DNA from: a bacterium
Lineage (GTDB): Bacteria > SZUA-182 > DTGQ01 > JAFGSM01
Direction of reading: 5' to 3'
DNA: 46,251 nucleotides
NCBI GenBank assembly: GCA_049472355.1
Contig: JBLIRP010000018.1
Span: 1-46,251 of the forward strand
This document shows, in pieces, positions 43,314 to 46,251 of this stretch (position 1 is its first letter; each line of letters starts with the position of its first letter). Both the position numbers and the translations under genes were made by a program. The notes under the pieces are model-generated. The model did not search any database. It was not told the origin of the DNA and saw nothing but the letters and a program-made list of their open reading frames with translations.

Positions 43314-43517
43314 GCTATTTTACGTGTTCCCCTATCGATGCCTTGTGTCACGAACGGCAGGCGCATGACGCGGCCATTCACAACAACAGAATTATACAAT
43401 CGCATACTATATGGGACTGTTCTTATAATTGATGCTAAAACAGTAATAAGGATTTTCATTATACCACGTCAAATAAAATAGAAAAACATGTTGTTTGCCA
43501 TTGTTCAGGAGTCAACA

Positions 43518-44111
43518 ATGCACGAAAAGACACCTCCATTCAATCCGCTTATCGCGATGTTTGAACAAGCGACCCGTAAGGCATTTTCCTGCTATCCGGA
43601 GCTTTATGACCGCGATGTATCCGAGCATATATGCTCTCACATCCTCTCCGAATTCGTGAGGACCGACAGGCTCTACTGGATTCGGGACAAGGAAGGAAAG
43701 AGGCTCGGCGAGATCCCCGATATGCTGGCGGAAGGGGATGTGCTTCTTCGTGCCGAAAGCATGGAAAAGGAACTGGCGGTACAGGAGCACATCGGCAACT
43801 TCTCCCTGTTCATGTCCGGGCTTTTCCCCAGGGACTCCGGGCGCCTCACCAACAGAATCCCGCTCAACATGAGAAAGGATCGGATCTACCTGGCCCTCTA
43901 CATGACCCTGCATTCTACCGACAAGGGCATAGACTACTACATCATCCAGGGGAGGAAGGCCTATGAGAAGGCATCAAGGATCTACAAGGGACTCAATGAC
44001 CTCAAGGCGTCCCTCCTCAAGAGGCTGAGCCAGCGTTTCGAGTCCTATGTCTGCCTCATGCAGACCATCAACGACTACCTCGTTACCCCCGGCCTCGTTG
44101 CAGGCACATAA
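43518..44111 (+). CDS. Conserved hypothetical protein
   Basis: AGGAG SD before ATG 43518, host-like codon usage, motif HIGNFSLFMSGLFP. No recombinase motifs seen. Confidence 0.75.
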   Translation: MHEKTPPFNPLIAMFEQATRKAFSCYPELYDRDVSEHICSHILSEFVRTDRLYWIRDKEGKRLGEIPDMLAEGDVLLRAESMEKELAVQEHIGNFSLFMSGLFPRDSGRLTNRIPLNMRKDRIYLALYMTLHSTDKGIDYYIIQGRKAYEKASRIYKGLNDLKASLLKRLSQRFESYVCLMQTINDYLVTPGLVAGT

Positions 44112-44297
44112 GCTCACCCGAGAGCACTTCCCTTTTCGTCCCATGAAGGGAATTCTCTTTGCCGGCATTTTCATGTCGGACAGGGCAATTTCAATGCACA
44201 GGGGCTCATCAAGGACATCCTGATAGAGAAAAAAACAGGGCGCTTAGGATACGACGGTAGGTCGACGCAGATACCTGACCATCGGGTTATTCTTTTC

Positions 44298-44326
44298 TTG
44301 ATTTTCCATATACCATCATATAGTAT
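44298..44326 (+). promoter_or_regulatory. Putative Pc-like promoter upstream of the cassette array
   Basis: TTGATT-N17-TAGTAT pointing into the array. Confidence 0.45.
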
Positions 44327-44398
44327 CGCAATATGTGGAAATAAACAGGGAAAAATGTAATAACTGGAAAGCGAAGCGCCAAATTTTCCATATTTTGC

Positions 44399-44482
44399 GT
44401 TTAATATGAGAATAAGTGGAAAACCCGTCCGTCTATAGGGGCTGATATGGCGGACAGCTTTCCACTTATTGCACTGTTATGT
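44399..44482 (+). other. Array head recombination site (attI-like or degenerate attC)
   Basis: Ends in GTTATGT (44476-44482). GTTATGTGC is the exact complement of GCACATAAC at the end of cassette 1. It is preceded by a hairpin with arms AATAAGTGGAAA/TTTCCACTTATT. Confidence 0.7.
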
Positions 44483-44534
44483 GCTGTAAAATTAATCGTT
44501 TTTGATATATAATATTATAAATGGAGAAATTATT

Positions 44535-44747
44535 ATGAAATTGGAAGAAAAAATAATACAAAAAATACATGAATTACCGGAATCTGAAAAAGCAGAAATC
44601 CTTGATTTCATAGAATACCTTAAAACAAAGAAAGTAAAAAAGGAAAATAAAAATTGGACTAAATTTTCTCTATCCTCCGCGATGCGAGGAATGGAGGATG
44701 AACAAACGCCTTATTCCCTTGATGATCTCAAGGAATCATTTTCATGA
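44535..44747 (+). CDS. DUF2281-like antitoxin (cassette 1)
   Basis: IHELPESEKAEILDFIEYL pattern; GGAG SD; ATGA overlap with the toxin gene. Confidence 0.8.
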   Translation: MKLEEKIIQKIHELPESEKAEILDFIEYLKTKKVKKENKNWTKFSLSSAMRGMEDEQTPYSLDDLKESFS

Positions 44748-45091
44748 TTGCAGAAGGTCAAATCGCCCTTTTCAGATTTCCTCAAACAGACCAAGCAGAA
44801 GGAAAACTTCGTCCTGCCCTTATACTTCGTCAGTTGCCTGGTCAATATAACGACTGGCTAATCTGTATGATATCCTCACAGATTGATCAAAGAATTACTG
44901 ATTTTGACGAGATAATTTCTTCTAACGATCCTGATTTCAAACAGTCTGGCTTGAAATTATTAAGTGTTATAAGAATAAGTAGAATTGCTGTAGTTAATAG
45001 TGACATTCTTTTGGGTAAGTTAGGGCAAATTGGTAGTCAAAGATTATTTCGAATTAAGCAAAAACTTTCCAATTGGATACTAGGCACATAA
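44744..45091 (+). CDS. PemK/MazF family toxin (cassette 1)
   Basis: GQIALFRFPQTD...KLRPALIL, CMISSQ, SGLK..SVIR; stop codon lies inside attC R''. Confidence 0.88.
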   Translation: MIAEGQIALFRFPQTDQAEGKLRPALILRQLPGQYNDWLICMISSQIDQRITDFDEIISSNDPDFKQSGLKLLSVIRISRIAVVNSDILLGKLGQIGSQRLFRIKQKLSNWILGT

Positions 45092-45180
45092 CTTTCAATC
45101 AACACCGACCTCACTTAGCTGGCCGTGAAAAGCGAAGAGCCACGTAAACCGTCGTGAGGCGGGTTATTTCTAAGTTATAA
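45086..45180 (+). other. attC site 1 (95 bp)
   Basis: R'' ACATAAC, L'' AATCAAC versus L' GTTATT (extra C), central imperfect palindrome, R' GTTATAA. Confidence 0.9.
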
Positions 45181-45192
45181 GAAAAATAAGTA

Positions 45193-45741
45193 ATGAAAAT
45201 CTATGGATATACAATTGAATTAAGACCCGCTCAAGAATCGGATCGCAAGAAAATATATAATTGGCTAACACAATCTAATATAACCTCCTTTATGATGGGA
45301 CCGCCAGAATATCCAGATCATCCCATTCCATCTTGGGAAGAATTTTGTGAAGATTATACTTTATCCTTTTTTAATGCGTCGGGAGATGGTAAAGGAAGAA
45401 ACTATATTATCGTTGTAAACAATGAAGAAATTGGTACAATCGGTTATGATTTACTTGATAAAAATAAAAACAGGGTTGTATTAGATATATGGATGAGTGA
45501 TGAAAAATATTGCGGTCATGGCTATGGAAGCAACGCACTTGATACACTTTGTAAATATATACATAAAACCTACGGTATTACAAATTTCATAATAAGCCCT
45601 TCTGCTAGAAATAAACGAGCAATTGCCGCATATAAAAAAGCCGGTTTTAAATATGTAAGAATAATAAATAAAGAAGAACAAGAAAAAGAATTCGGAAAAA
45701 GCGAATTTGATGATAATATAATTATGATAAAAACCTTATAA
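45193..45741 (+). CDS. GNAT N-acetyltransferase, RimJ/RimL or AAC(6')-like (cassette 2)
   Basis: IGTIGY, LDIWM, CGHGYG, NKRAIAAYKKAGF; stop codon lies inside attC R''. Confidence 0.88.
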   Translation: MKIYGYTIELRPAQESDRKKIYNWLTQSNITSFMMGPPEYPDHPIPSWEEFCEDYTLSFFNASGDGKGRNYIIVVNNEEIGTIGYDLLDKNKNRVVLDIWMSDEKYCGHGYGSNALDTLCKYIHKTYGITNFIISPSARNKRAIAAYKKAGFKYVRIINKEEQEKEFGKSEFDDNIIMIKTL

Positions 45742-45829
45742 CTTTTAATCAACCCGACCTCACTGAGCTGGCCGTGAAAAGCGAAGAGCCACGAAAACCG
45801 TCGTGAGGCGGGTTATTTCCACGTTAGCC
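45736..45829 (+). other. attC site 2 (94 bp)
   Basis: R'' TTATAAC (complement of the GTTATAA that opens this cassette), R' GTTAGCC; about 6 internal differences from attC 1. Confidence 0.9.
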
Positions 45830-45868
45830 GTAGAAAAATAGTATGTCAGCTTATGGAGTACATGATAA

Positions 45869-46251
45869 TTGGAAACCTTCACTGACTTGAGAGACTTAGC
45901 GGAAAACCCTCAATATCAATCGCAAAAACAGAAAACTTTATGCGATCTGAATGATGACATGATTGACATGCCTATTGTAGGTCTGATCAATGGGTTTAAC
46001 GAATTGCCATATTGTTTTACTCTGCAAAGCTGTTATGGCCACTTTGTCTACAACGGTCAAAATGATGCTCATAATCTTGATCCATTGCCGACAGAAAAAG
46101 CCGTTGCCGAAGTGGAATACAGGATCGCCTACGTTGCATTCTGCATTGAGAACAGTGCTTCGGGAAGATGGCTGTTTGATGCATTAAAGGAAATCCCGAC
46201 TATCGATCAAAAAAACATCCAGCTTTGTTGTGCGGAATGGTTCTGGGAAAG
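45869..46251 (+). CDS. Hypothetical protein with a TYW3-like N-terminal motif (cassette 3, partial; absent from the ORF track)
   Basis: TTG start with GGAG upstream; frame is open to the window end: METFTDLRDL...IDMPIVGLINGFNELPYCFTLQSCYGH...CCAEWFWE. Confidence 0.75.
   Translation, partial: METFTDLRDLAENPQYQSQKQKTLCDLNDDMIDMPIVGLINGFNELPYCFTLQSCYGHFVYNGQNDAHNLDPLPTEKAVAEVEYRIAYVAFCIENSASGRWLFDALKEIPTIDQKNIQLCCAEWFWE

Follow-up and report, generated by a model that had tools for sequence, protein, structure and literature searches.

The window analysed here, a stretch of 46,251 nucleotides that makes up the entire contig C59 of a 3.49-Mb bacterial genome (G000), ends in a cassette array preceded by a head of repeated motifs at 44298-44484. 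The question raised by this locus is whether the head is a new kind of primary attachment site that captures cassettes away from any integrase gene, as a sequence-only reading had proposed, or the regular attachment site of an integron. The attI site is the least understood part of integrons and is hard to find computationally. The answer that we favour, with a probability of about 0.8, is that 44298-44484 is the intergenic region between intI and attI of a sedentary-type integron, that its integrase belongs to a Desulfobacterota-centred IntI clade and that the extra boxes are accessory integrase sites.

The array head, its crossover and the intI remnant

The features of the locus are given below. 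Bit scores are those of a weight matrix trained on homologous boxes, with the window left out.

43488-44111, plus strand: open reading frame of 207 amino acids, no Pfam/NCBIfam family; abuts the end of the intI remnant and is not part of the platform
44177-44309, minus strand: 5′ remnant of intI; ATG at 44309, about nine codons, a deletion, then a frameshifted stretch corresponding to residues ~75-107
44303-44314, minus strand: box rev1, overlapping the intI start codon (first motif of the sequence-only reading); 8.7 bits
44320-44348, minus strand: weak candidate intI promoter, CTGTTT-17-TACTAT, 10 bases before the ATG
44330-44341, plus strand: box fwd1, oriented as the R box, within the spacer of the intI promoter candidate; 19.7 bits
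44359-44370, plus strand: box fwd2; 17.1 bits
44385-44396, minus strand: box rev2; 13.7 bits
44399-44405, plus strand: GTTTAAT, at the position where the R″ box of an attC would be
44411-44422, plus strand: box fwd3, which lies 65 bases upstream of the crossover and forms the left arm of the outer stem; 21.7 bits
44427-44438, minus strand: degenerate copy rev3, left arm of the inner stem, conserved columns in homologues; below 6 bits
44444-44456, plus strand: degenerate copy fwd4, longer by one base and forming the right arm of the inner stem; below 6 bits
44459-44470, minus strand: L box of the simple site of attI, forming the right arm of the outer stem; 21.7 bits
44476-44482, plus strand: R box GTTATGT; crossover 44476/44477, the bases beyond the G being those of the first cassette
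44477-45174, plus strand: cassette 1, DUF2281 (44535-44747) and a PemK/MazF-like toxin (44744-45091); attC 45086-45180
45175-45823, plus strand: cassette 2, GNAT acetyltransferase (45193-45741); attC 45736-45829
45824-46251, plus strand: start of cassette 3, open frame from 45869 without Pfam/NCBIfam family, running off the contig end

The six motifs that had been listed from the letters (44302-44311, 44331-44341, 44360-44370, 44384-44393, 44412-44422 and 44459-44469) all read as described, and the 12-bp stem (44411-44422/44459-44470) and the inner stem of GTCCG (44427-44431) and CGGAC (44451-44455) are both present in the predicted fold. The right arm, TTATT-N5-GTT, is indeed common to both attC sites (R′ at 45174 and 45823), and the left arm carries GTTTAAT at 44399-44405 with no bulged base. 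What had been overlooked is that the first motif contains the start codon of intI. Comparison with homologues shows that the divergent intI starts in this motif, that the last motif is the L box and that the G/TT is the R box. The motifs are strongly concentrated here: ATANNTGGAAA occurs 36 times across the 3.49 Mb of G000, four of them inside these 140 bases of the head, and of the 292 hits of the weight matrix in the whole genome at a threshold of at least 12 bits only those of the window head form a cluster of five, with no cluster of more than two elsewhere in G000.

The array in the window comprises three cassettes, and its two attC sites are 89% alike. The gene pair of cassette 1 is like a type II toxin-antitoxin pair. 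Since the R″ of the first cassette, ACATAAC (45086-45092), is complementary to GTTATGT at 44476-44482, the crossover is placed between 44476 and 44477, and the aligned sites show the cassettes to be inserted between the G and the TT.

The translation of the remnant reads MENQEKNN and then continues in two frames that match residues 75-92 and 92-107 of integron integrases, with identities of 67% and 75% to the intact IntI of a relative, P0001 (tblastn), which scores 444 bits against TIGR02249 (cut-off 265) and covers the full profile. Aligned to the intact relative, about 196 bases have been deleted at a 4-base microhomology and everything past about codon 110 is gone; nucleotide identity over 112 bases is 74%, or 79% to the best match. 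A terminator-like hit at 44273-44287 lies inside the remnant. Within G000, whose completeness is 87.5%, no intI above the TIGR02249 cut-off was found.

Homologous heads and their integrases

A DNA search with the head covered G000 and 60 other genomes and found it in five of the 60, every one among the six closest relatives. In a genome of the same genus (G001, contig C21) the head is 89-90% identical and precedes an intact IntI of 336 amino acids that starts at the same ATG. Eight heads in G001, G003, G004 and G006 were compared by tblastn: intI was intact beside one, broken beside five and undetected beside two. Across seven loci of these genomes (L220-L226: G003:C3, G004:C141, C73 and C99, G006:C79 and C28, G001:C47) the head usually outlives the integrase. 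A head that outlasts its intI is a route from complete integrons to CALINs in which attI is kept.

A set of 168 loci was also chosen by IntI protein alone; genomes and metagenomes each supplied 80 and a class search eight. From these, 18 without the 5′ end of intI and 18 with fewer than 200 upstream bases were dropped, leaving 132, some of them duplicated. The head profile, seeded with the 55 loci whose IntI is at least 80% identical, was found directly upstream of intI at 102 of the 132 (duplicates included): 54 of the 55 seed loci, where the scores are partly circular as the weight matrix and the profile were trained on the same clade, 48 of 57 at 60-80% identity and none of 20 below 60%. 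The record titles name mostly Deltaproteobacteria, Desulfobacterota or Syntrophales groups, with a few other phyla. Removal of heads more than 97% alike left 83, including that of the window.

These 83 heads are conserved between the intI start codon and the crossover, and conservation stops at the latter. The base at the crossover is G in all 83, followed by TT in 71 and AT in 12, and the L box is separated from the R box by five bases in 51 heads and six in 32. The 20-mer after the crossover G is different in every one of the 83, these being homologous platforms at different loci. The head is therefore neither unique nor followed by a constant sequence, and the proposal of a primary attachment site with iterated boxes held: such a site recurs upstream of intI, with different sequence after the G/TT in every relative. 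The search for a co-occurring recombinase, which that reading had suggested, leads to integron integrases (TIGR02249). The other part of the proposal, capture away from any integrase gene by a new system, failed, as the intI remnant starts in the first motif, homologous heads lie upstream of divergent integrases and the head is the attI of a recognisable IntI clade.

That a different recombinase serves the head as an integrase-independent site is thus extremely improbable. It would fit with there being no intact intI beside the window head or found in G000, and with seven of the eight heads in relatives of the same order lying beside a broken or undetected intI. Against this, loss of intI is described as common among integrons in the part of the literature drawn on here (bioRxiv 10.1101/2025.06.18.660453), the remnant begins within the first motif and the 102 loci that carry the head directly upstream of intI had been selected by IntI. 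A new integrase-free site was accordingly rejected, the head being found at the 5′ end of intact TIGR02249 integrases.

Among the 12 heads with G/AT (L024:55-257 on the minus strand, L050, L051, L054, L109, L120, L121, L164 and others) the first element, where the sequence suffices, is mostly a gene-less one of about 200 bases, combining a short perfect hairpin with a long attC-like arm behind it, the form in L120 being shorter. The same element is seen at later array positions in L052, L054, L109, L120 and L169; none was found in G000. Its frequent presence directly behind the crossover hints that GTT cassettes may be locked out of attI by a GAT core. Gene-less cassettes are known from Vibrionaceae.

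In the window the head has been retained better than the gene. Compared with locus L024 the head is 90% identical and the intI remnant 74%, the opposite of intact loci, where the same intI segment is conserved as well as the head or better in 25 of 31 comparisons. Decay of intI ahead of the head in G000 would leave the array either frozen or served in trans, and use in trans, or use of the head as a promoter region for the cassettes, would explain its retention. For such a promoter, Pc, the best candidate is TTGATT-17-TAGTAT, which matches at 8 of 12 positions; a consensus scan gave none on that strand. Inactivated intI together with mobilisation of CALINs in trans has been described (bioRxiv 10.1101/2025.06.18.660453, in part).

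G000 holds two more decayed heads, on contigs C66 and C36, each with the intI start kept. On C66 (40233-40310) the first 80 bases of the head are found with a cassette array of the window's attC type. On C36 (4004-4378 and 6726-6947) the intI start and the L box are kept, with three palindromic repeats of about 30 bases between them, and a fragment of intI (78% to P0001) lies 2.3 kb off, past a long unrelated gene.

Turnover of the array at this locus was sought through the flanking 207-residue gene and through contigs from four sequencing runs of four studies. Homologues of the gene, 62-64% identical, are present in G003 and G004, two of the five close genomes; the G003 contig stops about 450 bases beyond the gene, and in the 16 kb of G004 that were covered no head was found, the nearest intI fragments being about 11 kb away. 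Neither at the loci of this gene in the five close genomes nor in the run contigs was the same locus seen with another first cassette. The run contigs broke at or near the crossover, with one piece ending at 44478 and another starting at 44477 among the pieces listed. In one contig of run X7 the flanking gene is joined to the head through 175 different bases, so that in a related strain another sequence replaces the intI remnant at this locus, and another X7 contig has intact-looking intI codons ahead of the head. Cassette 2 lies behind a different junction in contigs of runs X5, X7 and X9. These breaks and junctions are compatible with alternative cassettes, although they give a hint of turnover and not proof, because such contigs break at any branch.

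The boxes, their probable binder and the hairpin

Comparison of the homologues identifies the motifs as copies of one 12-base box with the consensus AATAAGTGGAAA. In our reading the box consists of a degenerate GTTRRRY-like heptamer followed by GGAAA, the fit to GTTRRRY being at positions 3-7. Three boxes, at about −65, −117 and −146, are oriented as R, and fwd3 lies 63-67 bases from the crossover in 82 of 83 heads. The inner stem is formed by two further degenerate box-like copies, conserved in homologues and scoring below 6 bits in the window. Boxes rev1 and rev2 run opposite to R, with rev1 over the start codon; both differ from the forward boxes at the first five positions, and rev1, whose last seven positions are 95-100% conserved over 80 heads, is also coding. 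The reverse boxes may therefore serve another role.

The number of boxes follows the integrase and not the host. With falling IntI identity the mean per 220 bases goes from 4.85, in the top class that is partly circular, through 4.09 and 2.91 to 0.7, against a background of 0.1-0.2 in shuffled sequence and 0.08 in cassette DNA. Seven other integrases in G001, G006, G007 and G013 have 0-2 boxes, and records titled Anaerolineales, Pontiella, Ca. Scalindua and gammaproteobacterial symbiont have 4-6 beside this type of IntI. The distance from fwd2 to fwd3, which could be taken in 71 heads, is 51-54 bases in 60 and 42-43 in 10, with the remaining one, at 40 bases, belonging to a head that is missing a unit; it has changed at least five times on the IntI tree. 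A spacing that steps by one helical turn suggests proteins bound on one face of duplex DNA and, together with the tracking of the integrase, indicates that the upstream boxes are probably accessory duplex sites for IntI, which may also repress intI.

Whole box units are duplicated in L064 and L082 and lost in L071, L074 and L138, which makes the box number flexible. In L067, a distant cyanobacterial integron (record title Nodosilinea, IntI 53% identical), four direct repeats of a related box lie upstream of intI. They begin like GTTRRRY and continue with GGAAA or GGCAA, a hint that the extended box also exists outside this IntI clade.

With fwd1 between the −35 and −10 elements of the candidate intI promoter and rev1 on the start codon, the boxes are placed as would be expected of a repressor site. 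At the candidate −10 position TATTAA, TATTAT or TACTAT is found in 42 of 80 heads and at the −35 a TTG in 32 of 80, and the distance from the −10 to the ATG is 9-10 bases in 69 of 80; a consensus promoter scan gave nothing above chance and did not report the candidate. Binding of IntI to fwd1 and rev1, if it occurs, would make the integrase a repressor of its own gene, and this is the boldest part of the model. The same placing could also point to operators at which a host regulator, LexA-like or other, controls transcription of intI and the cassettes, the upstream boxes then not being integrase sites. In other integrons intI is known to be under LexA control (PMC8876359, in part), and G000 has a lexA gene. 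Nevertheless this is very unlikely, since G000 has no second box cluster and the lexA intergenic region is without a box, the sole hit lying 400 bases upstream inside the preceding open frame. The palindrome TAACA-N2-TGTTA of lexA is found in none of the 83 heads at one mismatch (the 5′ end of recA is off its contig, and the SOS comparison in G000 is that with lexA). The boxes moreover track the integrase clade through hosts of several phyla, are absent next to the other integrases that these genomes carry and have one copy that is the L box itself. The palindrome lies just upstream of lexA (G000:C75:9519-9530), with two other exact copies in the genome, and is a candidate SOS box of the lineage.

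The last 84 bases of the head could be read as an attC-like hairpin or cruciform, with attI being recognised and recombined as a folded single strand, or folding in a leader RNA. The geometry imitates R″-L″…L′-R′, the stem in the window is paired at 12 of 12 positions and the folds have z scores of −3.4 and −4.3; for the bottom strand of 44290-44500 (z = −3.4) none of 200 shuffles was equally stable. Over 82 heads (L145, which is without the inner part, was left out) the outer stem positions are 81% Watson-Crick and z falls below −2 in 58. Pairing is 76.6% compared with 74.0% in column shuffles, none of 500 shuffles being as high, and 81 cells are changed on both sides as against 51 in shuffles, an excess that relatedness alone can produce. 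The own-versus-cross excess with L is also highest for fwd3, at 0.49 compared with 0.40 and 0.16.

This folded form is nonetheless unlikely to be what is selected. A perfect outer stem occurs in only 11 of the 82 heads. In 72 heads (11 with a missing or unreadable box were left out) the 130 departures of L from its consensus are mirrored 29 times in fwd3, 30 in fwd2 and 21 in fwd1, and fwd2 and fwd1, which cannot be stem partners of L in this fold, thus mirror it to a similar degree. On the IntI tree of 71 tips the same-branch, same-base changes shared with L are similarly 10 for fwd3, nine for fwd1 and eight for fwd2, with nulls of 3-4, and RNAalifold predicts no pair (some rows with a 6-base spacer are one column out of register). 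Of the 82 heads, 62 have the triplet AAT at the R″ position and one has AAC, which would leave a mismatch in the bottom-strand cleavage pair, and the stem is a continuous 12 bp without an extrahelical base. The mismatches lean towards G-T on the top strand (51 compared with 25), whereas attC uses the bottom strand.

Examined by stem mirroring, tree co-change, shuffles and RNAalifold, the attC-like hairpin is not supported as a stem-specific, selected structure: the sequence of the head is conserved, while its pairing is not specifically kept, apart from the small excess over column shuffles. As judged from these alignments the boxes drift jointly, as they would under the preference of one protein, with no privileged role for the stem partner. 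It seems that the hairpin is a by-product, arising solely from the inverted orientation of copies of one box, fwd3 against L and rev3 against fwd4. Two further candidates were rejected: a decayed attC, the head being at the 5′ end of intI and not the 3′ end of a cassette and conserved across heads, and a structured RNA, as there is no Rfam match to an E value of 1 within 44100-46251.

Taking the boxes as integrase sites, the five to seven copies other than L would bind the cognate integrase on duplex DNA and, like DR1 and DR2 in attI1, would load integrase and shape the synapse with a folded attC. A more far-reaching version, possible but doubtful, has up to nine IntI-bound boxes from the crossover to the start codon acting in a phased complex as a recombination enhancer and a LexA-independent autorepressor of intI; here the palindrome would show how an attC-like hairpin originates from inverted attI boxes, and it might be extruded and used.

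Comparison with known systems

Known attI sites are duplex, with L and R boxes and in some cases accessory domains (PMC4792948, in part). The attI1 site, composed of L, R, DR1 and DR2, recombines in duplex form (PMC8946536, PMC4792948, both in part); DR1 and DR2 favour recombination of attI with attC and may be topological filters, and attIA has none (PMC8946536, in part). The head shares with attI1 (class 1, 65 bp) the divergent intI, a G/TT simple site with an inverted L box, an array of attC sites downstream and accessory boxes oriented as R. It differs in its length, about 175 bases from the intI start to the crossover, and in its boxes, of which six are clear and two degenerate and which face both ways; these are 12-base near copies of L and extend over the start codon of intI and its candidate promoter. 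An attC-like palindrome results from two inverted pairs, and the spacing varies by one helical turn. The box count in this clade is six to eight, compared with four at the attI of class 1.

Like environmental and chromosomal attI sites (PMC3146285; attIA of Vibrio cholerae), the head has a simple site next to intI, and the sediment integrons of PMC3146285, as far as this source was used, likewise have IntI proteins near those of Deltaproteobacteria. Unlike the head, attIA and most of the 30 marine-sediment attI families (Elsaied et al, 2011, PMC3146285) are without direct repeats in the parts of the sources considered, the alignment of those families covering only the last 65 bases. Putative attI sites of archaea appear, with no detail on boxes, in the part of bioRxiv 10.1101/2022.02.06.479319 consulted, and PMC7790495 and PMC8876359 served, in part, as general background. 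No published account of a multi-box head was found in the literature searched, which left aside figures, supplements and most subscription journals; the head is thus the attI of a recognisable IntI clade, although not one with a published description there.

With attC the head shares the R″-spacer-L″…L′-spacer-R′ spacing and a predicted hairpin, but it lacks AAC at R″, the extrahelical base and stem-specific covariation, and its sequence is fixed, as is its place ahead of the array, whereas an attC closes the 3′ end of a cassette. By all features tested, Pc aside, it compares as a member of the attI family and fails as an attC.

Integrons with an inactivated intI are known, as in Xanthomonas. 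The window resembles these and CALINs in having a cassette array without a functional integrase adjoining it, and read directly from the sequence it has the at least two attC sites and no intact intI nearby by which a CALIN is defined. It differs in that attI and a recognisable intI remnant are retained, which makes it a decayed complete integron and not an insertion of cassettes at a secondary site.

The locus is hence not a new recombination system. What it offers is an attI signature for a widespread sediment clade and a resource of 83 aligned attI examples in which the crossover has been mapped and an extended candidate binding motif recognised. The signature can flag platforms with a decayed integrase that would otherwise be classed as CALINs, and if the promoter boxes bind IntI they would allow a direct test of integrase autoregulation replacing SOS control. 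The unusual trait of this integrase lineage is the six to eight look-alike candidate boxes along attI and the promoter, and by analogy the head would work like attI1 with more and longer accessory boxes.
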